64,000 nt of DNA from Flectonema sp. DT1601 (taxonomy: Eukaryota). The DNA lies in NCBI GenBank assembly GCA_964019425.1, contig OZ025787.1, forward strand, positions 620,001 through 684,000, in the 5' to 3' direction. Below the pieces are notes generated by a model, which made no database searches, had not been told where the DNA came from, and saw only the letters and a list, made by a program, of their open reading frames with translations. Positions within the stretch are counted from its first letter, which is position 1, and each line of letters starts with the position of its first letter. Both the position numbers and the translations under genes were made by a program. Shown in pieces: positions 22,780 through 64,000 of this stretch.

Positions 22780-24636
22780 AGACGAGCCGCTATGAAAAAG
22801 AATATAGAGTTCGTTAGTTTCGCATCTCATTTCAATCGCTCATATATGTGACTCACTATCAGTCACTCATAATTAGTGGCAGACCTGCCAGTACTGTTTT
22901 TTTCCTGCCTTTAAAAAGTATTGTAAAGAGCTAAGAAAATTGACTATCCCCGTAAACCTGCTTAAGTCAGTTCACGGTTTCGTTGCACAAGCAAAAACCA
23001 AACATCGCACCATTCTATAGTAGTCAATTCTATTTTTTTAAAATTATTATTTTTTGCATCTCCGTTTTTTCTCCCTTTTCCTTTTCTCTAATCGAGCGTC
23101 AACAAAACCAAACTAACATCTTTCTTTTAAGTGAAATCGGTTTCAAAAAGCAAAAACGTTTTGTGTGTTCGTAAAGGGTTTTCTGATCTGACTAGCAGCC
23201 CTATGTAAGTGATTCTTTAACCCCATTGTTGCCTCGGAATTACTAAACTAAATCAAAGGCTTAATTGTATTTTTATTTGTACCGCCGTATTCAGTACGGA
23301 GACGAAACTATTCAGATTGAAAGCAGCCGTTATTTCTAATGGTCAAAGTTATTGATTTATTTTCCACCTTGTGACGAGATTCTGTCTGCGTTCAACGAAA
23401 TATCAGGCAATAATCTGAATAGTTTTTTTTTTTTTAAATTTGTGACTCATTTTTTACGTGTGACGAAATAATCTTTTTTTTTTGAGTTATCTGTGACAAC
23501 AAGTTATCTCAATTTCATCACACGCGTTAGAAAAACTGATCTTCCCTGACTGTGGCTAATTGCCTAATATTCTTTTTATATTTTTCTTTTGTACCGACGA
23601 AGTCGGAGAAGAAACTATTCAGATTGAAAGCCGTTATTTCTAATGGTCAAAGTTATTGATTTATTTTCCCGACAGGATTCTATCTGCGTTCAGGGAAATA
23701 TAACGATAAGGTTAATCTGAGGGTTTTTTTTGTTGCTCCCCAGTTTTTGTCGAACTGGAAGGCATTCTGACAGTGTCAGTTTGCAACAAAATCAAACAAA
23801 CAAAAATCTTTGTTCGCTGTGTGTGAATCTTATTACTACTCAACCAGTAGACAGAACCTACATCGTCAAGTCAGCTATCAATCGCTTCTCTCCCCAGCTA
23901 TTTTTAGTCATATCGTAAATGACTTCTCAAGCGACGGATCTCTCTGTTCTCCGAGCTGTGCTATTGACTAAAAAGGTTTTTGTTCTCAACAAACAACGTC
24001 TTCTGGTCAATGGGACAAAAAATGTAATTTTCCCTTTTATCTTTTTTTTTTCTAAACGTATCTTTTCTTTGATTAACGACTACGAATATTTTTTTCCAGT
24101 CAAGTACTTGATATTAATCTTGTTTTTAATACACTGTTTTTGTATTGTCAAAGTTTCACCCCCAGTTTTTGGAAGGCATCCTGACAATAGCAGTTTGCAA
24201 CAAAATCGAACGAACAAAAATCTTTGTTCGCTGTGTGTGAATCTTATTAGTAGACAAAACCTACATCGTCATGTCAGCTATCAATCGCTTCTCTCCCCAG
24301 TTATTTTTAGTCATATCGTAAACGACTTCTCAAGCGACGGATCTCTCTGTTCTCCGAGCTGTGCTATTGACTAAAAAGGTTTTGTTCTCAACAGACACGT
24401 ATAGTGATGTGTTCATACAAATTGCAGGGACCAGTGTTACACTATAGTCATTTCTCTTTGAATTGATTTGGTATTGTTTCATTCATTTGCGAACTGTACA
24501 TACAAATACTCTCACCATTACAGATTGATTAATTCATGGTGTGGAATCTGATGACCAATGAGGTAAAAGTGTATAGTTAGTTTTATAATTTCAAAAAGTA
24601 TTTTCTCACCAGGACAGTCATCACTATCCATAGAGA

Positions 24637-33770: not shown

Positions 33771-35163
33771 AGACGAGCCGCTATGAAAAAGAATATAGAG
33801 TTCGTTAGTTTAGCATCTCATTTCAATCGCTCATATCTGTGACTCACTATCAGTCACTCATAATTAGTGGCAGACCTGCCAGTACTGTTTTTTTCTGCCT
33901 TTAAAAAGTATTGTAAGAGCCAAGAAATTTGACTACACACGTAAACCTGCTTAAGTCAGTTCACGGTTTCGTTGCACAAGCAAAAACCAAACATCGAATC
34001 ATTCTGTGTAGTCAGTTCTATTTTTTTATAATTATTATTTTTTATATTTGTGCATCTACGTGTTTTCTCCCTTTTCCTTTTCTCTAATCGAGCGTCAACT
34101 AAACCAAACTAACTTCTTTCTTTTAGGTGAAATCGGTTTCAAAAAGCAAAAACGTTTTGTATGTTCGTAAAGGGTTTTCTGATCTGACTAGCAGCCCTAT
34201 GTAAGTGATTCTTTAACCCCATTGTTGCCTCGGAATTACCAAACTAAATCAAAGGCTCAAAGGCTCAATTGTATTTTTATTTGTACCGCCGTATTCAGTT
34301 CGGAGACGAAACTATTCAGATTGAAAGCAGCCGTTATTTCTAATGGTTAAAGTTATTGATTTATTTTCCACCTTGTGACGAGATTCTGTCGTCGTTCAAC
34401 GAAATATCAGGCAATAATCTGAATAGTTTTTTTTTTTTAAATTTGTGACTCATTTTTTACGTGTGACGAAATAATCTTTTTTTTTGAGTTATCTGTGACA
34501 ACAAGTTATCTCAATTTCATCACACGCGTTAGAAAAAACTGATCTTCCCTGACTGTGGCTAACTGCCTAATATTCTTTTTATATTTTTCTTTTGTACCGA
34601 CGAAGTCGGAGAAGAAACTATTCAGATTGAAAGCCGTTATTTCTAATGGTCAAAGTTATTGATTTATTTTCCCGACAGGATTCTATCTGCGTTCAAGGAA
34701 ATATAACGATAGGGTTAATCTGAGGGTTTTTTTTGTTGCTCCCCAGTTTTTGTCGAACTGGAAGGCATTCTGACAGTGTCAGTTTGCAACAAAATCAAAC
34801 AAACAAAAATCTTTATTAGCTGTGTGTGAATCTTATTACTACTCAGCCAGTAGACAGAACCTACATCGTCAAGTCAGCTATCAATCGCTTCTCTCCCAAG
34901 TTATTTTTAGTCATATCGTAAATGACTTCTCAAGCGACGAATCTCTCTGTTCTCCGAGCTGTGCTATTGACTAAAAAGGTTTTTGTTCTCAACAAACAAC
35001 GTCTTCTGGTCAATGGGACAAAAAATGTAATTTTCCCTTTTATCTTTTTTTTTTTTCTAAACGTATCTTTTCTTTGATTAACGACTACGAATATTTTTTT
35101 TCAGTCAAATACTTGATATTAATCTTGTTTTTAATACCTAAAGTTGTTACTGTTTTTGTATTG

Positions 35164-36115
35164 GTCCGGCGCAGTTATGACCTTAAACTGACTGTCATCT
35201 TACCTGATCCTTTTGGTTTTCATTTCTTGCTGAGTGATATGGCTATGTGCTGCCCAAATCTTTTGTGGTACATTTCTAAAGCTTTTCGGTAAGCCCACAG
35301 TACACTTATAATGCTTGGACAACTGGGGGTGAACGATCCTCGGTACTGTTCCGGGGTTTTCTATTTTCTTTCGTGGAGTGTGGGCATATGGCACATGTGG
35401 TCGTATTATAAAGAAAGATGTATATGAAAGAAAGAAGATTTTTTATTTTTTTCACCTTCCCCCCACTCCCAGATCATTTCTCTTTTATTTTATTTAGTTG
35501 TTTACAACCTATTAGCCTCTGGGCAAGGTAGAGGTTGGAAGTCGATCACTTCCAGCCAATACTATGAAACTACAATCTTCGCGATTGGGTCCTTACTGAT
35601 GCGGGCTACCCAGACCCCTCGTAGTCATCAGTTTGTATTTTGCTAACTAACTAACACCCATGTGCCGAAAGAAGCGTCTTCGTTCGTCTGGCGGTGCCCC
35701 GAGTCTCGGACACCTCTATAGAGTACTGTCTGAGCATGAGTGGAACCTTTTTATTTTCTTATTATTCATCCCCCATAAACATAACTCAGCCCCACTCATT
35801 TTGTTGGTATTCCGCGTTCACTGATATATTTATATAGGGGGACTGTGTTAAATGGTGGAAGAAATAACCATGTTGACGTGGTTCCCTTGGCTGAGAAGGG
35901 CAAACGCGATGAGTAGGACAGGCCTGACACCGCAGTGTCCCCCTTACTTTCTTTCGCTGAAGAGGGCTGGGTAAGGGGAATGGTCCGAAGAAAGATTGTT
36001 TTTAATCTTAGCCCGAAACCAACTTGTTTGTTGTCCTACGAAATTTTGCCTTTTTTTTGATTAACTGTCACTGATAATTATTAATACTAACTAACTAACT
36101 TTTCTTTGATACTAA
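35164..36115 (+). mobile_element. 952-bp non-coding retroposon-like insertion with a (CTAA)n tail and a 97-bp target-site duplication (35067-35163 / 36116-36212)
   Basis: The flanking direct repeat is present only once in the paralogous spacer (~24062-24147). No convincing ORF. A hammerhead candidate lies near the 3' end. Confidence 0.8.
35940..36021 (+). ncRNA. Candidate non-circularly permuted hammerhead ribozyme
   Basis: CUGAAGA 35957-63; stem II 35964-71/36007-14; GAAA 36015-18; stem III UGG 35981-83/CCA 36019-21; GUC cleavage after 35985; stem I 35986-94/35947-56; extra helix 35940-47/35971-78. Confidence 0.75.
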
Positions 36116-36701
36116 CTTTTCTTTGATTAACGACTACGAATATTTTTTTCCAGTCAAGTACTTGATATTAATCTTGTTTTTAATACCTAAAGTTGTTACT
36201 GTTTTTGTATTGTCAAAGTTTCACCCCCAGTTTTTGGAAGGCATCCTGACAATAGCAGTTTGCAACAAAATCGAATGAACAAAAATCTTTGTTCGCTGTG
36301 TGTGAATCTTATTAGTAGACAAAACCTACATCGTCAAGTCAGCTATCAATAGTTTCTCTCCCCAGCTATTTTTATTCATATCGTAAATGACTTCTCAAGC
36401 GACGGATCTCTCTGTTCTCCGAGCTGTGCTATTGACTAAAAAGGTTTTGTTCTCAACAGACACGTATAGTGATGTGTTCATACAAATTGCAGGGACCAGT
36501 GTTACACTATAGTCATTTCTCTTTGAATTGATTTGGTATTGTTTCATTCATTTGCGAACTGTACATACAAATACTCTCACCATTACAGATTGATTAATTC
36601 ATGGTGTGGAATCTGATGACCAATGAGGTAAAAGTGTATAGTTAGTTTTATAATTTCAAAAAGTATTTTCTCACCAGGACAGTCATCACTATCCATAGAG
36701 A

Positions 36702-42013: not shown

Positions 42014-43267
42014 CGACACACCTCTGTGGGGGGAGTTGTTTAGTTATTTTAATGAATTCACGCAATTGCCTTTTGATTTCAATTGTTTATTATCAAGGCT
42101 GCTGAGGTGAAAAAAAAATATAAAGTTCGTTTGTTTCTTTTTGTTTTGTTGTTAGGTACGTTAGATACGATAGTTGCTTCAGAAGAAGCCAATTTGTTTT
42201 TTGATTTTTTATTTATGCATCCATCGATTCTTTTTTAGATTGTGAACTGTCGCATGATTTATCCCTTTTTTTAAAATTAATCGATTTGCGATATGCTATT
42301 CTGATTGTTTATCTTTTCTGTTTCCGAAGTGATAATACGATATGCCGTGGGGTGTGTTCGCATCTCATTTCAATCACTCACCTCGGTCACTCACTATCAG
42401 TCACTCATACATAGTGGCAGACCTGGTTTTTTGAAACTTTGTGTTGAAATACGGAATTTTGAAAATTTTTATGCGGAATTAGGGGTTTTCCCTTCTGAAT
42501 TTAGCAAGAATTGTAAAGAGGTAAGATAATTGACTACATATGTAAACCTGCTTAAGTCGGTTCACGGTTTCCTAAGTCAGCTCCAGTTATTTTTAAGTCA
42601 TATCGTAAATGACTTCTCAAACGGATCTCTCTGTTCTCCGAGCTGTGCTATTGACTAAAAAGGTTCTCAACAGACACGAATAGTGATGTGGTCATACAAA
42701 TTGCAAGTAAATGCATTAGCGACAACGTCTTCTGGTCAACGACAAAAATATGATTTTCCCTATTTTGTTTTGTTTTTTTAAACATACCTTTTCTTTGATT
42801 AACAACTGCAAATCCTTTTTCACGTACTTGATATTAATTTTATTTTTAATACCTAAAGTTGTTACTGTTTTTGTATTGTCAAAGTTTCACAGTTTTTGGA
42901 AGGCATCCTGACAATAGCAGTTTGCAACAAAATCGAATGAACAAAAATCTTTGTTCGCTGTGTGTGAATCTTATTAGTAGACAAAACCTACATCGTCAAG
43001 TCAGCTATCAATCGCTTCTCTCCCCAGTTATTTTTAGTCATATCGTAAACGACTTCTCAAGCGACAGATCTCTGTTCTCCGAGCTGTGTTATTGACTAAA
43101 AAGGTTTTTGTTCTCAACAGACACGAATATTGATGTGGTCATACAAATTGCAGGGACCGCGTTAGGCTACAGGTGAAAGTGTCGAATCCAAAACAAGAGA
43201 GAATGGATAAGTATTTTTATTATTTCCTTTAAACAGATCTCCTTGAATTATCTTGTGATCCACAACA

Positions 43268-46050: not shown

Positions 46051-48437
46051 CCCTTACACCACCAAAACCCCCAAAATAACGGGTCCAAAATTTTGCTGTT
46101 TTTTCAAAAAGAGAAAAGGTACCCCCCCAGAAAACCTATGTACCAAACCGGACACAACCACCCCTACGGGGTCAATAGCACCTGTCACCCGCACACCTAA
46201 CGGTGCGTACCTTGGTGCGTTGTTGCACATTCAGCAGAACTAACAAAGTCGGCACTCAACGGTTTCCATTCATAGCAGCTGCATGTTATTCCCTTCCTGT
46301 ATTTTGAAAGGGATGATGTTTCTGCGCAACATCATGTCAGAGGGAGCCCAAGTAAAGAGAATGCCAAATCACGGCCAAAATTAAATCGAAAAATCAGCCT
46401 GTTTTTTGAGCTTGTAAAAGCCCTCTGTGGTAGCAGAAACTACGCGAACAACTTGCATCATAGCACAGCAGGTGCAGATACACAAGACGTCGAAGATTAC
46501 CGCATCGAGGCTGATAAGCTCGGAAAATGTAAATAACATCGATCCCAGATCATGGAACTTCATTAGTAACAGTGCAGCTACTGGGCTGGATTTATAACTT
46601 TCGCCTCTTTACCCCACTATTGGGCATGCTGGATTTTCGAGAAGTCGGCGGCTTAGGAACATCACAAGGAATTTTGTAGTTTTGGAGGGTGTGATACCTT
46701 TTGAAACATGGGTAAGCACAAAGCGCTTGATTGCATCGCTCACAGTAATACATTATTTGTATGCGCTTTGCGTGAACTGCACACTGACGAGCCTTTTCCA
46801 TCTTTCCGAGGTAGTCCCAAAGCTGGCTTGAGTCGATCAGGGATTGATACTGATGGTGGAGAAGGCGGTACTGATGGTGTTATTAATAGTGTTGGTGCTG
46901 CTCGGGTACATTTAAAGTACCTAGAAGCTGCGCAATCAGCGCCAACTTAAAGGAGGAAAATCTCTTGCTTCTCCAACCAGATTCACTCCTATCCGTCCAA
47001 ACTCCACCGTGTCCACGTCGCATCAGAATAAAAGAATTCAAGATGCACGTCTCCAATATAAAAATAAAAACCTTCAAATACCAGCGAGGAGATTTCTGCG
47101 TCCTACGGGTTCTATCCTTGATGGCACAGCGAGGTCTGCGCCTCCCTTCATGATGTTGTACTTCGCCACCTGCTGTGGCATCGGAACAGAGGATTTTTTA
47201 TACTTGGCCCGAACTTTGCCTGACCTTCTGCAGGTTGTCCTTCCCGTCTTTCCACTTCACGAGGTGGACCTTGTGGGACTGACTCCATACGCATCATACT
47301 TCTTCAGCTGTTGTTGGGACTCTTGTCTTGTAGGGCGGCCACGGTGTGCTTTTTTTTTCGATATCAGATCTTTATCAAGGTCTTTTCTGTCTTTTCTCAC
47401 TGCTCCAACAGCCTTTAGCCTACTTTCAGCAGCCTGACGAAAAACTTGTACCGAGAAAACCAATTGTCGAAGCACACCCAGTATCGATAAGCTTCAGTAA
47501 GGTTTCGAACCACTTTGTCCGGCTTACGGGAATCCTTCCTATGGTTCTTACCAACATAAAAAATACACTTCAGAGTATATCCCTCGGTCACACAAGGTGT
47601 AAACCTTGATTCCGAATCGCTTTCTCTTCATCGGAGAGTAGAACATGAACGATATACGTCCACGGCAGGGAATTATTGTTTCGTCGACACTTAAATAGCG
47701 GCCTGGTGTTACCGCGGATGACCACTTAGGGAGAACAAGGTCGAGCAGTGGACGCACCTTGTGAAGTTTATCACGCTTCGGATCACTAAAATCGGGAGCT
47801 GGCAATGTCGCAGAGAAGTGTAAATTTCTCTGAATTTCGGCAAAGCCATTACGCGAAAACCCTTTTGGAAAGTAGGGGGTCGACAGCATGTCATTTAAAC
47901 TCCAGTAATCTTCCAGGTTAGATTTTATTATTAGGTGCGTCAGTAGCGTCCCCCAACAAAAGCCCTCAGCTCCTGTACTGGTTTCGAATTTTCTTCCCTC
48001 TGTGCATAGCCTCAGAGTTTTCTTTCATCAGCTGGAAAACTGATTCTCTGAAGAAAAACTCAAAAACCTGCAGTTCCGAGTTGCCTGCAACTTTAACCTT
48101 TAACGTTTCTTGGAAACGTGACTTTATTCTTGGTAACCTTGTTACCTCCCCTCCCCATTCAGGGTCAGATACTTCGTCAAACAACGAATCGGAGCACACC
48201 GACGGCGGATCAACTTCATCAGAACTGTGGACCGACATATTTCCTAAGTTGATTTTGGCCAGCTATAGCGAATGGAAAAATTACTATTCAATAAAAACTA
48301 TTGCGACGCAACACGTAAGGAACACAAAAGACGTCGCAATAATACCTCTTCCGTGAAATCGTTGCACTCAGAAATGCAAAATTTTCACTTAGCAAAATTT
48401 TTTTTTTTTTCAGACTGATATATCCGGTGGTGTAAGG
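46051..48437 (-). mobile_element. Decayed piggyBac transposon
   Basis: TTAA|CCCTTACACCACC at the left end and GGTGGTGTAAGG|TTAG at the right. Fragmented minus-strand transposase with SVDETII, FDNWFS, YNIMKGGAD and a C-terminal Cys-rich domain (CERCNQALCAYPCFKRYH). Confidence 0.92.
46592..48238 (-). pseudogene. piggyBac transposase with multiple frameshifts and stops
   Basis: The DDD motifs are distributed over several short ORFs in different frames. Confidence 0.88.
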
Positions 48438-50356: not shown

Positions 50357-50774
50357 TTTTAACAAAGCTTGCGAATCAGCCTGCGGGGGAGGAGGGGCGG
50401 CTGGGGGTAGCGACGGGACCCACGCCGGAACTGGCAAGCCTGAAGTGCGAGGGAGTAATTAGCCTTCCTATACTGTATGCACCTGGGAAAGAGAAGTATA
50501 CCTAATTGAATGAACATGCAGTTAACAAGTCTGAGATCACAAAGAAGAATCTACACTGTGGTGCAGATTACTTCTGCGTAGGGGTTGTACCGGGCCGTTT
50601 CGATTCGACGGGACACCGGCGGGGGAAGGGTGGGTGGGACTTAATTTAAATATAAGTTTTCTTGTGATGAAGACAGGGGTGTGAGAACTGATAAAGGGAT
50701 AGAAATATTTGATATCGTCAGAAAACTAATAGAGACATTGACCTATATAAATAAATAAGGAACGGCGATTATGT

Positions 50775-50846
50775 GGCTACATAGCTCAATTGATAGAACG
50801 CCGGTCTGAAATAATGGCGGTCGAGGGTTCAAAACCCGCTGACGGC
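50775..50846 (+). ncRNA. tRNA-derived (Phe-GAA-like) element in repeat A2, with a broken acceptor stem
   Basis: 72-nt canonical spacing: A box TAGCTCAATTGATAG, anticodon loop CTGAAAT, B box GGTTCAAAACC, then T5 at 50849-53. Confidence 0.75.
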
Positions 50847-50980
50847 GGTTTTTGTTTGGTGCTCAGTTTCGGTGGCAAATTACCTAAATGGAATTTTGAT
50901 AATTAGCCTTCCTATACTGTATGCACCTGGGAAAGAGAAGTATACTTAATTGAATGAACATGCAGTTAACAAGTCTGAGA

Positions 50981-52700
50981 TCACAAAGAAGAATCTACAC
51001 TGTGGTGCAGATTACTTCTGCGTAGGGGTTGTACCGGGCCGTTTCGATTCGACGGGACACCGGCACCACCACCACCACGCGAGTTAAAGAACGACCCCAA
51101 CGCTTGTTCAACCTTCGCTCTCGTTCCGTGTGAGACTTCCTCTCGAGAAGGAATGTCTGCTGGGTTTAGCTTCGTGCTTACCCAGGCAAGGGAGTAGGAA
51201 CATTTCAAAACTAAAAGGCATTCAATCGCAGTTATCAAACACCTGTTGAGACTGTGTGAGCGAACACACATCTTCTTCCTAAAAGCACCACAAACTGTAG
51301 TGTTGTCAACCCAGATGGAAAGGTGGTCGGCCTTTGAGTGTCTGTCCAAGAGCGTCCGCTTCAAGGATATTTATATGTCGGTCTTCACCAGCAGGCCATG
51401 CCGCACCAAGAATTTCCAGCTCACCTGTTTTCCAAACGATGACACCTCCCCATCCCTGCAATGAGGCATCTACAAACACTTCGGCAGTCCTCCCCTCTTT
51501 CTGCTCAGGCATAATTATTCTCTCCTTCTGCACAGCACCGATCCACATTTCTAATTCCCTCCTTACTGAACGGGGCAATTTTAGTACCTGCTGTACTTGT
51601 AGGGTCCCCTTGTTCAAGTAATTTGTGACCCTGCGAAGATACTTCAAGCTAAACCAGTACTTCCCAGGTGGAACTCCAACAATGGAGCTGGCATGCAACA
51701 GGCGACCTCCTAAGGACTCCAACTCCGATGCAGTCAATGAATCAAGGTTGGTGTTCTTGATTTTTCTCCCAATCTTGGTCCCCAAGCTCACCCTGTCCGT
51801 ATGGTGATCAAAGGTGACCCCCAAGAACTCATACTCCGGAGAGAGATCCACAGTATCACTTGGTTTCCATGTGATGTTTGCCATTCTGGCAAAGGAGTCC
51901 ATCCTCTCAGCTGCGCATTTAACCTTCTCCTTGGGACCAAATAACCTAATGTTATCGATCCACCAGTGAATCCAACGGCATCCTGCAGGGACTTCAAGAC
52001 TGGATTCTACCAGGTCTGCATACCTGAGGAGTCAACTTCACTCTTCAGTTTCTCTGATTCGGCTGGGAAGGTTTATTCTTTGACTCGACTTCCGATGGGT
52101 CATGTGTGTGCCCCAGAATTGATGAACACCATCGCTGCAGTAGTTGCTGGTGACCCGCTGTTCGTTAAGAAAGAATTTGCGGAGGAGGAAACCTCCGAAT
52201 GTACAGCATCCAGGTAACAAGAAATGTGCTGCAGTGGAACGAATGGTTCATATCCCCCAGACGAGATCAGTTCGTTCTGCTCTTTTGTCCAGAGGATGAA
52301 CCGCTGTCTGTTCCCCGTCTCCCTCTCCTCTCATACACTGTAAATGGTACATTCCGAGACAGCGGTACAGAATCACTCGGCACTGCAATACCACACTCAA
52401 CCAATTCTCTTGCATGTTTCTCTGCCAACTTCGAAGTTGCCCTCTTCGAGAGCCGTGCATTGACAGAAGAATCCCTAGGAAAGAAGGTGAGGTTCCAAAC
52501 ATAATCAAACCTCTTCAGGACCGATGGCAACATCCTCCCCCTTACAGCTGAAACATCCATCTTAGGTGTAGGGGCCACATGTAGTGGTGAAGATATCTCC
52601 TCCTTCGTTATGGGGATGCGCGTGCTCTTTGTTCTGTGCGTGAACTGCGCTGCTACGCCCCGCATCACATCCCGTTCACTCGCATTCTTTGATCTATCAA
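50981..52700 (-). pseudogene. RT/RNase H of the YR element, disrupted by frameshifts (~52330, ~51340) and an internal inversion
   Basis: Minus strand: NVPFTV, RQRFILW, WIDNIRL, EFLGV, and RH motifs VDAS, HINILEA, VDNTT, NPADIPSR. Plus strand: RDFKTGFYQ and RLPMG. Confidence 0.85.
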
Positions 52701-53915
52701 CTACAGGAAACAGGTGACATCCCCTGTCTTTAACGCCCTCGCCATTGCAATTGGGTTTCCGCCGTACCTCAGCGTGGTGTCTGAAAGGGCCGACACTCCT
52801 GCATGCTTGGCCAGCCTGCTTATCAGCCCTTCTGTGAGTCCTTGCTGCTCTTGGTCCGATGCCAGAACCTCCAACAGATGACTTATCGCACCTCTTTTTA
52901 TTGAGTGGGCGGTGTATCTTTTCATCCTGCCGTCCTGCTGGAACGTTTTCACTAATTTTGACGTGTCCCACGGGTGTAGTTTTTTGAACTCCCCCATCGC
53001 ATCCAGCAAGATCTTTATCTCTTCTGTGTGATTCCCCTTTATCACCGTCCATCTGCTTGGCGAGTAAGGGTTTGCCCTCCTTCCCTTCGGCGTGCGGAAC
53101 CAATCTATAATAATCTCTGACGGACTTACAGAGATGAACTGGTCCCTTGAGAGCGCTGCGGTCTCGCCCCATCTTGATGCAGTCTTCCAGCACACTAGCA
53201 TTGCCAAGTGGGTCTTTAAGTCTTGCCCCCTTGCCCAATCCACCAGGTCGAAACTTGTCATTGGCGTTGCCTGTTCCAGCGGTATTGCCGCCCCGTTCGC
53301 CCTCAGTGCTGCAGCCAAGCTCAACAGCGGTCCGTTTTCTATTCCGATCCTCCCCATCACTGCAGACAGACTCTTTGCATAAGAGAGAAGCCCTTGCACT
53401 GCCACACCTGTCGCCATCACGAACAGAACAGCCGAGCTTGCGTTTGCTGGTTTCTCCTTTTCCCTTGCCCAGGCCCGAAATCTTCTCCACAGATTCCGCC
53501 TGCTTGCTGTTGTCTTTGAGGCCCACATCTTCTCCAGTGTTTCTTGAAGCTTTTCTGTCGCCTCCATGTATGTGACGGAATCCTCGGCATGCCGCCTCTT
53601 CGTCCCCTCTGGGCATCCCTCCATCATGTCCAACAGGATCTTCCCAACCACATTTCCTTCTAATCCTTCTGAGGGCATTGTTTCCGTTGAATCTGCGATC
53701 TCTTCTGTTCCAACTGAGCTTATTTTCATCTCCCTTCCGCTGGGGAATCCTCGGACTGCGGATTTTACAATGTTGTCCGGGTCTTGAACGATTAAACTTA
53801 CAGATCCTCCTAACCTTGCTTTTAGTCGGCTGCTCCTCAACACCTGTCTTGAGTGCTTCTGCATAAGTCTTGCGGGCTTTCTCAACTTTAACTTTGGCAA
53901 TGGGGATGTTTCCAA
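52701..53915 (-). CDS. Tyrosine recombinase of the YR retrotransposon
   Basis: Catalytic set R (SRWGE), K (PKG), HxxR (HSIKR), H (AKH) and Y (LRY) is intact. Start codon uncertain. Confidence 0.88.
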   Translation of the reverse strand: METSPLPKLKLRKPARLMQKHSRQVLRSSRLKARLGGSVSLIVQDPDNIVKSAVRGFPSGREMKISSVGTEEIADSTETMPSEGLEGNVVGKILLDMMEGCPEGTKRRHAEDSVTYMEATEKLQETLEKMWASKTTASRRNLWRRFRAWAREKEKPANASSAVLFVMATGVAVQGLLSYAKSLSAVMGRIGIENGPLLSLAAALRANGAAIPLEQATPMTSFDLVDWARGQDLKTHLAMLVCWKTASRWGETAALSRDQFISVSPSEIIIDWFRTPKGRRANPYSPSRWTVIKGNHTEEIKILLDAMGEFKKLHPWDTSKLVKTFQQDGRMKRYTAHSIKRGAISHLLEVLASDQEQQGLTEGLISRLAKHAGVSALSDTTLRYGGNPIAMARALKTGDVTCFL

Positions 53916-53984
53916 TACTTGCGTGTCTAACCTTCGTTTTAGGAACGTTGGTTTTGTTGTTACTTGCAGGGTCCGGTCGGCTGG

Positions 53985-55223
53985 TCACTTCGCGAACCCT
54001 CTCCCGTTTCCCGACGATGGATACGTAGAGACAAACGATCTCCCCCCTTTCCGTTTCGGTTGTTGCATCTTCGCATTTCTATTTCTCTTCGCTATTGCGT
54101 TTGCTTTCTCCAGAGGGTCCTCCGATGCAACTTCTAAGATCATCTCCAACTCTGATCTCTTCGTACCATCCTTGCAAAAGTAATACTGCATCCGCAGTTG
54201 CTCCAACAGCTCGTTCCCCAACTCCACAAAGTGCGGGTTCTCCTCCCACCCTTCAACGTACTCCAAACCGAGAACGAAGTTCTTCAACTGCCTGAAGAAG
54301 CCAAGTAGCTGGCCCCCACCAACCTTGTACTCCAGACCGTTCACATATCGCTCCCTGATCCCATGGATCAGTGCCTCGGTCTTTCCTGACTTCATAACGG
54401 ATGCCCACTTTGTTACATCCCTGCCTGCAGACGGATCAGTCACCTCCCGTGTCATCGCTTCGTTCGACCCCGGTGCTGGTAGTTGCTGTGCTGCTCCCCC
54501 GACTACTGGAACTTGTTGAGCCGTAGTCAACCCGTTCTTCAGATCTGCTATTTCTTGTAATATTTTTTGGATCACTTCCGCATTCTGCTTTTGCTGATCT
54601 CTCTGCTGTTGTGTGATTTGCTGGATAACGCTAGCTTGTTGTTGTTGTTGTTGGGCCTGTTGTTCTCTGAAGGCCTCCCACATGCCTCCGATGTTCTCGG
54701 CTTTTTCAGTGGCCTCCCCAACCCTTCTCCTCACTGATTGGCTCTCCCTCTGATACTGGCTAAACGCCGTCTGCGTTTCGCTTCTCAGCGAGTCGAACCC
54801 CTGCTTGGTATCACTTCTCAGTGTGTCTGTGCTCTGCTGCAGCGATCCCATCGCATCCGCCTCGTCGTGCGTCACCAGCCTATCCGACCCCCCCTTAGAT
54901 ATCCGCTCGCTCATCCGGGCGGCGCTCTGGTTGACCAACTGCAGGCGGCTCCTTGATAACACACCAAGTATTACTAGACACTTATTCATCGAAAGTGTCT
55001 TGGCCGCATCATTGGAGATCCCGAGACACATGGCCAGTGTGCCTTGGATCAACCTTCTTGTCTCCTTGTCGGATCTCAATGTACTTAAGTCGATGCTAAA
55101 GGGGATGCTTGCAACCAGCTCGTCCAGATTGATATTATCGAGCTTCTTTGGTGGTTCCTCACCCATCTGCGCCTTCCAAGTCTCAATTAAGAACTCAGGG
55201 AACTCAAAATTTACACGAGTCAT
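53985..55223 (-). CDS. Gag-like ORF1 of the YR retrotransposon (412 aa, coiled-coil/Gln-rich)
   Basis: First ORF immediately after repeat A1. Assigned by position only. Confidence 0.7.
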   Translation of the reverse strand: MTRVNFEFPEFLIETWKAQMGEEPPKKLDNINLDELVASIPFSIDLSTLRSDKETRRLIQGTLAMCLGISNDAAKTLSMNKCLVILGVLSRSRLQLVNQSAARMSERISKGGSDRLVTHDEADAMGSLQQSTDTLRSDTKQGFDSLRSETQTAFSQYQRESQSVRRRVGEATEKAENIGGMWEAFREQQAQQQQQQASVIQQITQQQRDQQKQNAEVIQKILQEIADLKNGLTTAQQVPVVGGAAQQLPAPGSNEAMTREVTDPSAGRDVTKWASVMKSGKTEALIHGIRERYVNGLEYKVGGGQLLGFFRQLKNFVLGLEYVEGWEENPHFVELGNELLEQLRMQYYFCKDGTKRSELEMILEVASEDPLEKANAIAKRNRNAKMQQPKRKGGRSFVSTYPSSGNGRGFAK

Positions 55224-55401
55224 TATTTAACTTAATTTAAATATAAGTTTTCTTGTGATGAAGACAGGGGTGTGAGAACTGATAAAGGGATAGAAATATT
55301 TGATATCGTCAGAAAACTAATAGAGACATTGACCTATATAAATAAATAAAGGAACGTTTTTTATTTATTTAATAAATAAATAAAAGGAACGGCGATTATG
55401 T

Positions 55402-55473
55402 GGCTACATAGCTCAATTGATAGAACGCCGGTCTGAAATAATGGCGGTCGAGGGTTCAAAACCCGCTGACGGC
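55402..55473 (+). ncRNA. Second, identical tRNA-derived element in repeat A1
   Basis: Same sequence as 50775-50846. Confidence 0.75.
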
Positions 55474-55527
55474 GGTTTTTGTTTGGTGCTCAGTTTCGGT
55501 GGCAAATTACCTAAATGGAATTTTGAT

Positions 55528-55682
55528 ATTCCGGGTGATTGGGATGGGAATTGCCTGTTCAGGAGTGTGTGCCAACCCCTGGGGACGCCAGAGGGGTGGA
55601 AGGGCAGACATGGAGAGCTCCGCAGGAGAACGGCAGGGTACCTGACAATTTGCAGGTTTGCGGGCGTTAGAAGAGGATGGTG
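55528..55682 (+). pseudogene. OTU-like cysteine protease fragment
   Basis: IPGDWDGNCLFRSV...HGELRRRTAGYL resembles the OTU Cys box (DGNCLFRA...LR). Confidence 0.6.
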
Positions 55683-55746
55683 GCCTTCCTATACTGTATG
55701 CACCTGGGAAAGAGAAGTATACTTAATTGAATGAACATGCAGTTAA

Positions 55747-58700
55747 TATCATTAATTTTAGAACAGAAAAGTGAGAATAAGAAAAGTAGAGATCAATAAA
55801 AGAAAAGTATTCATTTCTGCAGTTTCCTAACATCAAAGGGTAATAGAATATGTAGTTTCAGGCCTTAATCTTATACTACTTGTCCCTTTTTAGGCCTTCA
55901 TCAGTAAGTTCTAAGGGACTTCATTCTATGTTGAAGTTGCTATCGTTCAAAGATAAAAATCCATCGGAGCTCGCCAGGATAGGGCTAGCAATGTTTATTT
56001 GCTTTTGCTCAATTTGAATTTTTGACGTCTGATCGTTTCACTATTACAGTCGAGTTAATGGATGAGTCGTCATCCAATTTGCGTTTTACTTTATCTTCGC
56101 ATATCATCAAAGGTCCTATATTCGCTGGTGTCATCGTAACATCCATATCAGTCTGAGCTTTTAATGGTATCATATGGAAACTATACTCTGTAGTTCGGTA
56201 CATCTTGTCAAAATGATCGAAAGGGAGTCTTAAATCTTTTGTGCCTTTAAGAATGTCTCGGATGATCATGGACTCAAATGAGACTAGCGCAACAATAAAG
56301 TGAGTCATCCTTGTTTTCGCTTTATGTAGAATAAGTGCTGCGGCTGCTTCAGGATAATCGAAATCTGCTGGGTTAACGAAGTACTCGATTCTTCTGTTGA
56401 ATTTAGTCATGCAAGCCATGTTAAGTACTTGTAGCGAGAACCAACCATCTGGTGATGGTTTATGCTCTGAGTTGTTCGGTTCTACTTTAAGAGATTCTTC
56501 ATAAAATCGCTGTTGGTAGTTTTGCAGAAAACTGAAGTTAATTCTATCGATATATAAATGATCTGCAATGAAGTTGAGCGCTGCCCATCCGCATTCTCCA
56601 CCGAGAAGACCTTCTCCTGATGTTTGATGTAGGGATGGTGGAAATCGTTTATCCAAGGAATGGCTTGTAGAGCCTGTGTGGTTAATTGTATCCTTTTCGA
56701 TGCTTAATGGGACTTTGTGACTAAACTTCTCAAAAGTAAGGTTGATACGTCGACGCATTGCAGCTGCTGTATTACCATCATCAATGTGAGAGCTAATGAA
56801 GCGGAGGCATGCTGCTCTGATATTGTCAGATTTATAGCCCCGGTTGAGTAATCTATAAGTTACCGCTTCAAGTTCCTGTAAAAAGTCTGCCTGGTTGTTG
56901 CAGATTTTTAGAGCTCGTAAGATCATGGTGGTAAAGATACCTGAACCCATTGATTCTTGAGCTGCGGAATGCTGATGAGTAAACCTTGTTGGCGTAATAT
57001 GCCAACCCCTGGCTTTGTCATTAACACTTAAACGAATCCATCGTTTATTTGTGTTAGTGATCTCTATTCGGATACGAATTCCTATATAAGAGACATCATC
57101 AATATTATTCGAAGTATCAGTGTAATCCATTGAATATAGACTTGCTGGTGGAGGGTCGCAACTCCAGGTGAGGAAGTCGTCGATGTATCTACACGAGTGG
57201 TCATGTTGCCGAGCTAAGTCTAGATTTTTTGCTTCAATTAAAGAATCGATATATGCGGATTCAACTCTATAGCAGTAGAGATTTGCTATATCGCTACTGG
57301 CGTTGCCACCCATTGGAATGCCTATTGTTTGTCTCCAAATATAACCTCTTAATGCAATAAAGGAGGAGTCAATACAGAATTCAAGTAATTTTTGACATTC
57401 TGCAAGCGCAAGAGAAGGGAATCGTGTAGGGTCACTCGATTCAAGACGTAAGATATTTTTGAAACTAAAGGCTTCTTGCAGTGCTTCACTTACTTTAGTT
57501 TTAATAGCGTTGTGTGGTAGGCGGGTGTACATTGTTGTAAAATCAAAAGTCTTAGGGGATAATTTTTTCAAAACCATCAAATTCTGTTTAATCGAACTAG
57601 AGACTTCATCATCTGATTCCACAATCCAGTATCGTTTGAACCGTGAATGCATATCTTTCTCTTTCAATATAGTCATCGCATTTTTAAGGATACTAGAGAG
57701 ATGTTGGTGCGCATATGTTGTTGCTGTTGCAGGTGCAAGATTATGATCCTTATCGTATTGTCGTTGTTCTGCTGTACCCGTGAAGGATGAGACACCAGTA
57801 ATCCATCTCATCCCGATAGCTGATTTGTGTAATTTAATCATTCCATATAGGTGTGGGAGTCGATCAGAGTGGCGGGCATTGATTGAAATGTTCATGTTCT
57901 TGAGGTTGGCTAGTAGAGTTGGTTCGTCTGATGTGATGCGTTCATAAGAATCACTTTGTAGCTGCTCTCGAAGTAAAAGCAAATAATTTATTTTACACAT
58001 GTAACCAATATCGTGCTGTCCTTTGTCAACTTTAAGAAACACAAACTGAGATTGAAGATTCTGAAGTTCAGTCCATGCTTTATTTGATAATGGTGAGTCA
58101 AGAAAGCTTAAGTCTTTACTTAATTTAAGCTGCAATTGTTTAAGAATTGTGTTTTTAAAGATCGATTTAAAGTTATCGCCAACGTTCTTGTATGCGTGAG
58201 TTATATATTCAGTAATATCATTTTCAAGTGATTCTAATGCAGCTGATGGGTGCACTGGGACTCTAAATTTTTGACCTCGTGCGAAGAAGTCTCTTAGTTC
58301 TTCTGAGACTGGTAAATCAATAGCGAGTCCGCAAGAATGGCCGTTGTATTTTAAACTATTCAGTTCTTGAGTACTGCAATTGCAAGTAGATTGAGTCGGG
58401 GAGTCTGAATTGATGCTTGTTGAAGATGCATTTAAGACGATATCACCAACTGTTGTTCCAAGTTTGTTACAGATGCGTGTTCTTTCAAGAGTTCTTAGAC
58501 AAGGACAGGTTGCTTTAACTTCATCACATCTAAGAACAGCGCCAAGACCAATACGATCTAATGCTTTGTGGCCAAGATTCAGTTTCAACCAGTAAGTGTC
58601 CGAATCCTTCTTCTTGTTTTCCCTTCTGAGATTGGCAGGATTTAGTCTTTGCATGAAACAATGCTCCAGCTGTTTTACGCGGGCAGTGTAATGTTCTTGA

Positions 58701-59841
58701 AAAAAGTTACTTCTAAGAAACTGCAAGACTTTTGTAGTGGAGCGTGTCTGCCAACGCGAGAAGTCGTATTCAACGAATTCTTCGTCAGTAAGCTTAAACA
58801 AATAGTTAAGCTTTGACGGGATCCATTTTTTATCCGTTGCGACTTGAAAAGAAACACCTGTTTCTAGTGTTATTGTTGTTGGTTGCAATGTATTGGAGGA
58901 CGTTGTGCTGCTCACATTGTAACCGTCATCTGCTACTTCGTTGAAGTTGTAGAAGTTTTCTGTAGCAAGATGTTGTTGTCTTACAGGTGGAGGTTGGCGG
59001 TTGTTTCTTGTGCGATTTCTGTTCGTACTCAATTTTGGTGCATAATAGCCACGCGTATTTAATAGATTTTTAAAGGAATTAATATAATACTGTTCACGTG
59101 GTGCGGCAGCTCTGTAGAAATCCGCTGCGTTGTTGTAATTGCAATCCGGAATCTTTTCTAGCGGCATGGCTAGGAGTGGGAATCTCTGCTTTGCCAGGAA
59201 CTCATAAAGCTTGTTCCCCTGGTAGCTGTTGTCCCTTGAGTGCTTTTTCGCAGCATACCAGTGGGAATGAACTCGCTTCATTGTAGAATTATACGTTTGC
59301 CCTACGTATACTACTTTCTGGTCTGATCTTCTAAAGAGTGCATAAATGACTCCGGGGGTACGCATTCCGGGTTGTCTGCCTCTTATTTTGCGGCGTTGTA
59401 AAATTTTCCTTTGGAAAATATGGCGTTGACGGTTACAGTTACTCTCGTAAACTGACCAATCTATTCCGCCGTTTCGCTGCTTGTTTCTGTGCGCAGCTCC
59501 TTCATTATGCCAATTAAAATGGGCTTGGCTAGAATGCCAGTTTGCGCGGGAACGTCCATGTTGGCGTCGAATTCTATGTTGTGGGTGTTGTGTAAAACTG
59601 TGTCTCACTTCTCTTACTGATGACTTTCTCCATGGATTAGAATTGTAAGAGGGAGGCAATGCTCGTTCAATGATTAGACGCATTTTACCAGCACCTACGG
59701 ATCGAACTGCTGCACTGATTGCAGCAAATGGGAGCTCTTTCCTGTTTTTTTGCTCTATCATAATTTTTAAAGTGCTTCCTGATTGCACTATCTTCCTTAA
59801 CTGGAAGTCTCTTAAAGGTAGCACTCTAAATAGTGCTGTCC
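55747..59841 (-). mobile_element. Penelope-like retroelement with N-terminal endonuclease (Naiad/Chlamys-type), 5'-truncated, 15-bp TSD TGAACATGCAGTTAA
   Basis: TSD at 55732-55746 and 59842-59856. One long ORF with GIY-YIG followed by RT. Hammerhead candidate in the 3' UTR. Confidence 0.9.
55852..55919 (-). ncRNA. Candidate non-circularly permuted hammerhead ribozyme in the PLE 3' UTR
   Basis: Minus strand reads GUCCCUU-agaa-CUUA-CUGAUGA-AGGCCU-aaa-AAGGGAC-aa-GUAG-UA^-UAAG-auua-AGGCCU-GAAA-CUAC. Predicted cleavage is between 55874 and 55873. Confidence 0.78.
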
Positions 59842-61400: not shown

Positions 61401-64000
61401 ACCCGCAAACGAAGGGGACGAGAGGCCGGAAGGCAAAGACGGGGGCAAAGGGGGCCGGAAAGGAGGACCCAAGTCCGCAGGTCGCTTGCAGGTTTGCTGC
61501 AAGCGGAAATGGGAGAGTCCACCCCGAGCTCAGGTGAACGGCAGGCGAGGAGGTACGCGATCCTCAGTGCCGATCCGCGGTGTGAAAGCATGGCCTAACG
61601 ATCCTTTGGTCTCGCTTCATGTTCAAGGGATGAAGCCGGGTTTGACAGAAAAATTACCACAGGAATAACTGGCTTGTAGCAGCCAAACGTTCAGCCACAG
61701 CGACGTTGCTTTTTGATCCTTCGTTGTTGGCTCTTCCTAGTTATTCATTACTTTATCATCATTTTCTCTCTCAGGTGCAATACAGTGATGGAAAGCTAAT
61801 TATCAAAATTCCATTTAGGATATATCCGTGCTTCGATGATGGAGGTTATGAACTTGGAAGCGGTAATGCTACTGAAAAACGTGCATGAAAAAAAGAGCAA
61901 AAGGTTGCTTTTCTTCTTACTACATCCCCATCTGTAGTTTATCTCACGTTTCTATTTTATTGAAAAGAATGAAATGAAAGATAACCTTAATACTTATTTC
62001 CATCACAGGGTAGAATTGCAGCACATTACAGAGATAAGTTCAATAAAGAACTTGATTGCTTTGGATTGATTCTTTTCAAAAGGAAACCTCAGCACAAGCA
62101 GCAACCTCTGTCGAGTTTGAATTACTTTTCCAAATCCTGGCCTCTTACCTTCTAGCCTGGGGAATGTAAGAGAAGAGTTAGAATTAACATTCATCGTTAG
62201 TGATATCTTCTCAACACCTGCACCCCTCCAAACTGTTGTGTATTCATCATTTGTAATAAAAGATCCCAACATTGAATCCATTTTCCACTGCCAGTATTTC
62301 TCATTGCCATCGGTTGTTTGCTTCGGTCTCTTTGTCTGTCTCTCTTCTTTCTAAGTTTTTCATAACCAATGCGTAGTATTCTTTATTCGGTGTAGCATAA
62401 AGTGATTATTCCTCTTTCTTTATTAGACGTGAATAAACAGACTGCAGCATCTGTTGAAGAACTGCACACAGTGTGAAAGACTCCTGATGTTGATCCTACA
62501 ACAGATTGGGATTCATCCTCATATCCACATGTAATAAACCTCACTTGATACGTCCCCCATCTGAGATGTTGGATACATTCTTGGCGTATGGAATCGAGTT
62601 ATCAATTTCAAACAATCGTGAGACGAGCAATTACGTATGCTTGACAATAGCTACTTGATAGTTTTTCCATATCACTTGGAGGATGTCGCTGTAATAGAAA
62701 ATACTCAGGTACTTGAATGAACATTGCACAACAATAAGCCACTGCTTTACAGTAGGCCTTGAGTGAGGCCGGGTAATTCCATAAATCAAAACATATACAG
62801 CAGACTAAACGCTACATAAGTGTAAAAGAACGGTACTTGGTTGCTCCTCACAGGTTGTGACTCTGGGAAGCAACAATAATAGATTTCGTTTTTAAGCAAT
62901 AATAGAATAGTAATCCTGACAACACCAAAACATATACTTCAAGACTTACCAGAATTGACCCCTTGCCCGCAGCTCGCATGAAAGTCGAGTGAAAAATAAT
63001 AAAAAACCATTCAGATTAGCCTTATATTTTGTTGAACGCAGACAAAATCCTGTCGCACGGGGAAAATAAATCATGACCATAAGAAATATCGGCTTTCAAT
63101 CTGAATAGTTTCTTCCCTGACTACGTCGGTACAAAAAAAAAAAAAAAAAACATTTGCTGCTTATTAGTTGGGCACGCGTTTATTATCTTTTTTTAAAAAA
63201 AAAAAAAGAAAGATCGTTATAAATATGGTATACTATAATAGGAAACAAGTAAACAAAACGAAGGACGACGTTTTTAAATAGTATGAGTGGCTGGACAAAA
63301 AAATTCAAAACTATAATGTGTGTTTTGTAAAGCAAAATTGCCTGACAAAGGCATAAAGTGTAAATGTAGTCCAGCAAGCTCGGATAAATATAATTTTTTT
63401 AACGGTTTATTCGTACAAAACAGAAACAGAACAGTGCAAAAGCTCGATCATGGTCGCAGTGAAGAATTATTTCAAACAAAATAAAACACCTAACGAATAC
63501 ATAAAACAAACTGTGATCGGGTTTCAAAAGAACTCCACTGTAGACCACTGGGCTAAAACGCCGACAATTATCTTCGAGAGGGGTCCGAAAAGAATAAATT
63601 ATAATAGAATTGCACCCTACTAATCCACAGGGACAGGGGAAAAGTTCGATTGTCGTCCCGACGCGCAACTTGGTGACAACGGTGGAGACCAATCGTGGAT
63701 TTCGGAAGTAGAAGGGATGCTAACTCGGGAAACAGAGGAGGGGTGGGCCCCTCGAGACCCACAACTTGGAGATATCGGTGGTGACCAATCATGAACACCA
63801 GTTGTCGGAGTGACACTACATTGGGGAGGTGTGGATGAGTTGTCGGATCGTAGAGTGTGTATTTGATCACGCAAAGCGAAGCATTCCGTTGAGGGTAAGA
63901 ATTGACCAAAGTGGGAAGTAATTGGTGAAAGTGGTGGAGAGTAAGGGGTGAGCGGATTAGACAGCAGGACACTGTTTTCCCCAAATTGAGAACTCACACA

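Follow-up and report, generated by a model that had tools for sequence, protein, structure and literature searches.

The window analysed here, a 64,000-nucleotide stretch of Flectonema sp. DT1601 (contig OZ025787.1, positions 620,001 to 684,000), contains a 952-bp insert (35164-36115) enclosed by two copies of a 97-bp direct repeat. We read this insert as a non-coding element of two modules, A and B, of which B carries a predicted type-CSG hammerhead ribozyme, and which was likely copied by the reverse transcriptase (RT) of a Naiad/Chlamys-type Penelope-like element (PLE); the mechanism as a whole appears moderately probable. B itself would be a retrozyme-like element, likely moved by an enzyme of that type. 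The insert has discrete ends and corresponding empty sites, both modules end in CTAA repeats, the CSG fold occurs in B and again in a PLE of the same window, and one public assembly joins B head to tail.

The two repeats agree at 95 of 97 positions without gaps; both mismatches lie in the left copy, and the right copy equals the site at 24062. The segment between them occurs once in the window (best other match E = 0.18) and offers, over six frames, a stop-free stretch of at most 80 codons and a Met-started one of at most 54, which bears out the first-pass annotation's description of a unique non-coding segment between near-identical repeats. Its choice of the spacer at 24062-24147 as the empty site likewise holds, since this paralogue has a single repeat copy, though 11 bp shorter. 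A second spacer (42788-42878) also has one copy and retains those 11 bp, being more diverged and with a 6-bp gap, and one contig of public run X1 joins 35099 to 36151, skipping the insert and constituting an empty allele, for a total of three empty sites. With both strands of the window considered, the sole CTAA runs of at least two units are those at 35643-35654 and 36087-36098, and the 3′ junction reads as tail, 12-nt copy of the target start (36099-36110), one additional tail unit and target, the repeats and stutter being located where the first-pass annotation had put them. Its further proposal of target-primed insertion with slippage fits this junction, although the mechanism itself is one that we infer.

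The insertion site is a spacer within a tandem array of subtilisin and Thr-rich membrane-protein genes, which raises the possibility that the long duplication arose when paralogous spacers recombined or served in repair, and is not a target-site duplication (TSD). There are at least four such spacers, 88-96% alike, both differences between the repeats fall in the left copy, and 97 bp far exceeds the TSD of the window PLE. However, the divergence of 2/97 equals the background of the two flanks (8/500), the stutter exactly copies the start of the duplicated stretch, and the simplest version of such an exchange requires a pair of insertions separated by 97 bp; TSDs of very great length reportedly also have a precedent in R9 elements. 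Recombination is accordingly a highly improbable source of the repeats, and we retain their reading as a TSD. Separately, tail and stutter together create two TACTAAC words beside pyrimidine runs (36084-36130), ~600 nt before a subtilisin open reading frame (ORF); these words, which we take to resemble a branch-point signal, could affect splicing.

Parts of the insert were found in eight public runs from six studies (X1 to X8), none of which contains half of its sequence words, and contigs from seven of the eight were aligned to it; X8 gave no alignment over 35560-36130, which proves nothing. Five contigs, drawn from all four runs of the first set, begin at 35161-35167, and the three of them with readable flanks have unlike ones. 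At the other end of module A, contigs of X1, X2, X3, X4, X5 and X7 stop matching at 35650-35655, where those of X1, X2, X4 and X7 continue into unlike sequence and those of X3 and X5 terminate. A fixed start and a fixed stop with unlike flanks identify A as a dispersed element with fixed ends, as anticipated by the first-pass annotation, which had also suspected a composite element from the CTAA run near 35643; A and B indeed have ends of their own in other runs. Its alternative of a truncated PLE remnant is not supported, given that there is no ORF, that both modules have defined 5′ ends and that neither resembles the window PLE.

In module A, no hammerhead was found in any block order, even with a relaxed last core base, and there is no Rfam match at gathering score. 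Its conserved 3′ end shares a 10-nt word with the core strand of the window PLE ribozyme and may form an H-type pseudoknot (Table 1). At 35556-35573, two subfamilies of A (window, X3 and X5 versus X1, X2 and one X4 contig) each retain one GAAA then CTA(C/T), 8 nt apart; these words could pair with the strand before a GUC at 35626, but stem I does not form. A tRNA-derived head of the insert is unsupported, because ARAGORN reports no tRNA in the window.

The contigs of X1 cover B whole. Record 3 covers 35701-36092 at a depth of 25.5, and record 2 (depth 7.9) comprises the B tail, ~66 other letters and the B head (35655-35730). The two records have ~30 letters in common at the head and, at the tail, 23 aligned letters, overlaps that we read with an assembly word length presumed to be 31. 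Together they fit a closed path of ~500 nt in the metatranscriptome assembly graph, that is, a tandem repeat or a circle. These records also bear on a sequence of two events, in which A, as a short interspersed nuclear element (SINE) moved by an ordinary non-LTR element, made the 97-bp duplication, and a PLE-derived B later entered the A tail, duplicating its 13-bp (CTAA)3C. The two CTAA runs are identical across 13 bp, which is near the 15-bp TSD of the PLE, and several clades of long interspersed nuclear elements typically have short-repeat tails. Moreover, Naiad and Chlamys prefer microsatellite targets (PMC8557442; for all published systems compared here and below, statements extend to the available portions of the papers), and the Diplonema genome has many LINE-1, SLACS, R2-like and jockey-like RT genes (PMC10161547). 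Nevertheless, CTAA-ended B occurs where A is not seen in front (X1 records 2, 3 and 5; X2 record 9), and in X1 the B head is preceded by B's own tail region rather than by A. We consider successive insertions unlikely, and favour A and B having entered together within one duplication.

The first-pass annotation had claimed a ribozyme without giving coordinates; one is predicted in B, and it is of an unusual type. A scan for CUGANGA, stem II and GAAA yielded two non-repetitive cores in the window, at 35957 (+) and 55904 (-), and in both the cut-site strand sits inside what would be loop II. The block order in B is CUGANGA / cut site / GAAA (C-S-G), a non-circular permutation with an intact core, and cleavage is predicted after the GUC at 35983-35985. 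A CSG descriptor (stem I of at least 4, stem II of at least 4 and stem III of at least 3 bp), its thresholds fixed after both motifs had been viewed, matched exactly two sites on both strands of the window, namely B and the 3′ untranslated region (UTR) of the PLE, versus one match in 200 dinucleotide-shuffled windows. The letters of these two predicted ribozymes differ in all four helices, and all pair, but the sequences barely align. Within the B family, the variation seen is limited to a single indel and a single A-to-G substitution, both in two X1 contigs: the T that bulges from stem I is missing, so that the stem runs unbroken, and A35946G preserves a G-U wobble pair. Rfam at E ≤ 5 returned three chance-level matches and did not detect a hammerhead. 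From its sequence, we assign the predicted module B ribozyme to type CSG with high confidence in the predicted fold.

The same letters could also be read as a degenerate type I hammerhead of the canonical kind, with cleavage after 36035 at a GUC further downstream; the CSG pairing would then be accidental or an inhibitory fold. Directly behind GAAA there is indeed a CAAC/GTTG hairpin and then GUC, and a second family in X1 and X2, whose likeness to B is limited to the last 70 nt (36024-36095), keeps this hairpin with a longer loop; PLEs and the retrozymes of animals are also known to carry type I (PMC7761336; bioRxiv 10.64898/2026.07.22.740005). However, a strict type I descriptor has no match in the window, and the relaxed type I reading of B requires bulges beside the core that leave one contiguous pair each in stems I and III, as well as leaving an 8-bp and an 8-9-bp helix unused. 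In addition, the window PLE ribozyme has no type I reading even at relaxed thresholds. A type I ribozyme is thus very unlikely, and type CSG remains our assignment. One may speculate that two alternative cut-site strands on one core suggest a route from type I to type CSG.

The non-circular permutation and the presence in the window of a PLE with the same wiring both go beyond the first-pass annotation. This PLE lies ~20 kb from the insert, where it interrupts a terminal repeat of a tyrosine-recombinase retrotransposon; the corresponding empty site is at 50955. Its minus-strand ORF has 1290 codons and is followed after 105 nt by the predicted ribozyme (core 55904, cut site 55876-55874, GAAA 55859; predicted cut after 55874). 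The distance from the predicted cut to the 3′ end is 127 nt in the PLE and 114 nt in B. A GIY-YIG domain precedes the RT, as indicated by a weak PF01541 match (E = 0.027) with motif columns conserved in nine of nine aligned proteins, and relatives of the protein have GIY-YIG before RVT_1. By alignment, CxC, DKG and the finger insertion are present, whereas CCHH and CX2-5CxxC are absent from the endonuclease; this copy has no upstream pseudo-long terminal repeat (pLTR). Domain order and motifs would therefore make the element Chlamys-like, since Chlamys likewise combines GIY-YIG before RT, CxC, DKG and a finger insertion with no CCHH (PMC8557442, Craig et al. 2021). The best named relatives of the protein are from Flectonema neradi (54% over ~450 amino acids) and Diplonema papillatum (40%). 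These matches, although to a protein of a mobile element, and the long ORFs without interruptions point to a likely diplonemid host. Neither Euglenozoa nor Diplonema is mentioned in the available portion of PMC8557442, and literature searches, in which subscription journals were mostly uncovered, found no Penelope elements in Diplonema, no Chlamys clade in diplonemids and no published link between permuted hammerheads and PLEs.

Rewired hammerheads may be more widespread among related elements. Most Naiad and Chlamys elements are reported to lack a canonical hammerhead, with ten 'core' and eight 'half-core' cases marked (PMC8557442). In the Naiad consensus file of that paper, complete CSG motifs with a I-II helix were seen by eye in 4 of 21 places of one motif search and in 3 of 30 of a second, one being common to both, for six distinct places; these are readings of search matches rather than a census, as motifs broken across lines escape the search and most records appear in the matches unnamed. 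The order site / GAAA / core is present in four further places and in a degenerate fifth, and another motif search added no CSG in the 28 of 37 places viewed. We also examined 80 of 479 metagenome loci encoding RT relatives, where a strict search of all six block orders gave no match and a relaxed one (3/3/2) gave two weak matches. With stem II left free, the scan recovered the order site / GAAA / CUGANGA in 21 cores on the sense strand, compared to none antisense and 0.53 per shuffled set. Twenty of them are compact and fall in 14 sequence clusters, L080 being dropped for having no compact fold; of the 66 loci that extend 150 nt or more past the stop, 18 carry such a core in that stretch. In 18 of the 20, the strand before GAAA forms 5-6 Watson-Crick pairs with a partner that precedes the cut site by 23-44 nt (1.05 expected), and the same pairing behind the core occurs in none. 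In the resulting wiring, stem II is separated from the core strand, and the order runs stem II 5′ strand / cut site / CGAAA / CUGANGA. The label of type SGC, considered for the 21 cores, was ruled out, as stem II is absent behind the core and its partner strand lies upstream of the cut site. This upstream partner sets most of the rewired relatives apart from published type SGC, so that the 20 metagenome relatives appear to carry another predicted form of rewired hammerhead. A 'GA + G' split was unsupported (2/20 versus 4.4 expected). A short tandem repeat, resembling the B tail, is found within 220 nt behind the core at 7 of 20 loci versus 1 of 19 upstream. Searches of viral contigs for PLE relatives produced 21 pattern matches, none of which was confirmed.

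Table 1. Positions of the predicted and observed features in the window, and the metagenome loci with a split stem II
Feature	Coordinates or loci	Strand	Basis and remarks
Left copy of 97-bp TSD	35067..35163	+	95/97 identical to right copy
Module A (non-coding, fixed 5′ end, (CTAA)3C tail, no complete ribozyme found)	35164..35655	+	homologue ends in other runs
Predicted H-type pseudoknot, 3′ end of module A (hammerhead-like words, no full core)	35587..35631	+	putative; hairpin in minimum free energy (MFE) and centroid folds, crossing 5-bp helix read from sequence
(CTAA)3C tail of module A	35643..35655	+	
Module B (retrozyme-like, non-coding, 444 bp, no ORF)	35656..36099	+	fold z = -2.1
Predicted type-CSG hammerhead of module B	35940..36021	+	core scan, descriptor, helix reading
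B I-II helix, 8 bp	35940-35947/35971-35978	+	
B stem I, 4+4 bp around bulge	35948-35956/35986-35993	+	
B core CUGAAGA	35957-35963	+	
B stem II, 5 bp	35964-35968/36010-36014	+	
B stem III, 3 bp	35981-35983/36019-36021	+	
B GAAA	36015-36018	+	
(CTAA)3C tail of module B	36087..36099	+	B contigs of X1, X2 and X5 carry a CTAA tail too
Junction stutter (12-nt target-start copy plus one extra tail unit)	36099..36115	+	
Right copy of 97-bp TSD	36116..36212	+	95/97 identical to left copy
Empty paralogous site	24062..24147	+	single repeat copy, 11 bp shorter
Second empty paralogous site	42788..42878	+	single copy, retains those 11 bp; more diverged, 6-bp gap
Chlamys-like Penelope element (N-terminal GIY-YIG, CxC, RT), probably 5′-truncated	55747..59841	-	candidate partner class
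15-bp TSD of Penelope element	55732-55746/59842-59856		
Predicted type-CSG hammerhead, Penelope 3′ UTR	55852..55919	-	helix lengths 7 bp (I-II), 4 bp (I), 6 bp (II) and 4 bp (III)
Predicted split-stem-II hammerheads (18 metagenome loci)	L002, L004-L006, L008, L010, L013, L015, L030, L033, L034, L040, L042, L049, L050, L056, L069, L073		3′ UTR or upstream repeat

Comparison with known systems places the predicted ribozymes near CSG-1 and CSG-2, two unique soil-metagenome sequences validated at the bench, without host or genomic role, for which the authors graded the evidence for biological relevance as weaker (PMC10085705, Eckert et al. 2023). B and the window PLE share with these the block order, the intact core and, in the same place, an additional helix that connects stems I and II at their sides. 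Here, by contrast, there are two unrelated predicted sequences in mobile elements of a eukaryotic genome, and in B stem III is shorter and the linker before the stem II 3′ strand longer. As an element, B resembles the metazoan non-LTR retrozymes in being non-coding, a few hundred bases long and equipped with one hammerhead (PMC7761336; bioRxiv 10.64898/2026.07.22.740005); their head-to-tail arrangement, co-occurrence with PLEs and proposed mobilisation by PLEs (PMC7761336) may likewise have counterparts in B. Metazoan retrozymes, however, have type I hammerheads and animal hosts, whereas B combines a predicted type-CSG ribozyme with a (CTAA)n tail, a likely protist host and a fusion to a second module; it is single-copy in the window, and a tail-to-head contig occurs in X1 only. 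Because its hammerhead is not of type I, B may be said to work like a retrozyme rather than to belong to the class as defined.

Non-autonomous derivatives of Naiad/Chlamys elements, such as MRC1, have been described, among them head-to-tail ones of Chlamys, and TSD length varies with second-strand cleavage (PMC8557442). Known Naiad/Chlamys derivatives generally share 3′ sequence with their autonomous family, whereas A and B share none with the window PLE. A further comparison is with trypanosomatid RIME, NARTc and SIDER, derivatives of ingi/L1Tc whose ribozyme is said to be hepatitis delta virus (HDV)-like. These too are short, non-coding euglenozoan retroposons with a ribozyme and TSDs, but their ribozyme occupies the 5′ 77 nt and their tail is poly(A) (PMC12278014). 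A SINE of this type was rejected for the insert, which has neither an Rfam match above chance level nor a poly(A) tail; the one match to an HDV-like descriptor overlaps the hammerhead helices, and neither module has one at its 5′ end.

A mechanism consistent with these features would begin with transcription of B as tandem units, from which the hammerhead, cutting after 35985, would release monomers of ~500 nt; these may form circles, as the non-LTR retrozymes of animals do. A PLE protein would then nick AT-rich DNA, and reverse transcription would start at the CUAA run of B. A short first start could slip back onto the TAAC of the target, 12 nt from the nick, which would explain the stutter. 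On reaching the B head, the enzyme would switch template to an A RNA at its CUAA tail, placing A-B within one duplication, and a second-strand cut 97 nt from the first would generate the long repeats. The jump is supported by three cases in which the A tail adjoins the 3′ tip of a ribozyme-bearing element: whole B in the window, the last 96 nt of B in X5, and, in X1, a 19-nt word matching the 3′ UTR of the window PLE (the sole such match in the window). The Poseidon PLE, in purified form, cleaves AT-rich DNA on both strands and begins synthesis in an AC-rich part of its RNA (PMC11167929).

Several observations weigh against this interpretation. The identity of the partner is the main weakness of the model: the best BLASTN match of A or B to the window PLE has E = 0.22, and this PLE has a 15-bp TSD and no CTAA tail, so that it is not the direct parent. 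Moreover, the only PLE reconstituted in vitro inserted without needing hammerhead cleavage (PMC11167929). Module B is whole in X1 only and partial in X2, which is from the same study, and in X5; contigs cannot show the ends, strand, level or circularity of an RNA, and an RNA library may hold DNA. With respect to the ribozyme, stem III of B has just 3 bp past the core A-U pair, the nested MFE fold pairs the halves of the I-II helix and leaves stems I and III unpaired, and the exact B ribozyme pattern had no match in JGI metagenome contigs. Generality is further limited by the 80 metagenome PLE relatives, none of which has type CSG.

The remaining features of the window touch neither module. Bordering the PLE, an element at 50456-55746 (-) has gag-like, recombinase-like and RT/RNase H-like ORFs by eye, zero Pfam matches, and repeated ends (50639-50901 versus 55230-55528; 50456-50620 versus 50900-51064); we take it to be TATE/DIRS-like. 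Inside its terminal repeat, a stretch at ~55399-55475 appears tRNA-like by eye, although ARAGORN reports none. A piggyBac-type transposase fragment lies at 47548-48024 (-; PF13843, E = 2e-20). In the gene array, all four gene copies have the same 23-nt gap between the subtilisin stop and the start of a CUB-like/Thr-rich ORF in another frame (7845/7869, 17071/17095, 25875/25899 and 37916/37940), which may be a tiny intron, a frameshift or the boundary of two separate genes. Finally, ~61590-61740 presumably resembles a large-subunit rRNA fragment. Scattered 28S pieces have been reported in D. papillatum (PMC10161547).

A broader proposal, which we offer tentatively and hold as clearly less probable than the mechanism itself, is that the ribozymes missing from the N-terminal-endonuclease Penelope clade are in fact hammerheads with a non-circular permutation, of type CSG here, in a likely diplonemid, and in several Naiads and with a split stem II in many others, and that B is a protist retrozyme on a CSG ribozyme and a circular RNA, passing the RT to its ribozyme-less passenger A via the common CUAA tail. 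The locus joins two gaps, in that type CSG was validated on two environmental sequences, with weaker evidence for biological relevance (PMC10085705), and the 'core' and 'half-core' motifs of Naiad and Chlamys were left without an explanation (PMC8557442). It offers, in one window, an autonomous-type and a non-autonomous element with the same rare predicted wiring, together with empty sites and exact predicted cut sites. If this interpretation is true, retrozyme-like elements and Chlamys-like PLEs would both be extended to the euglenozoans.

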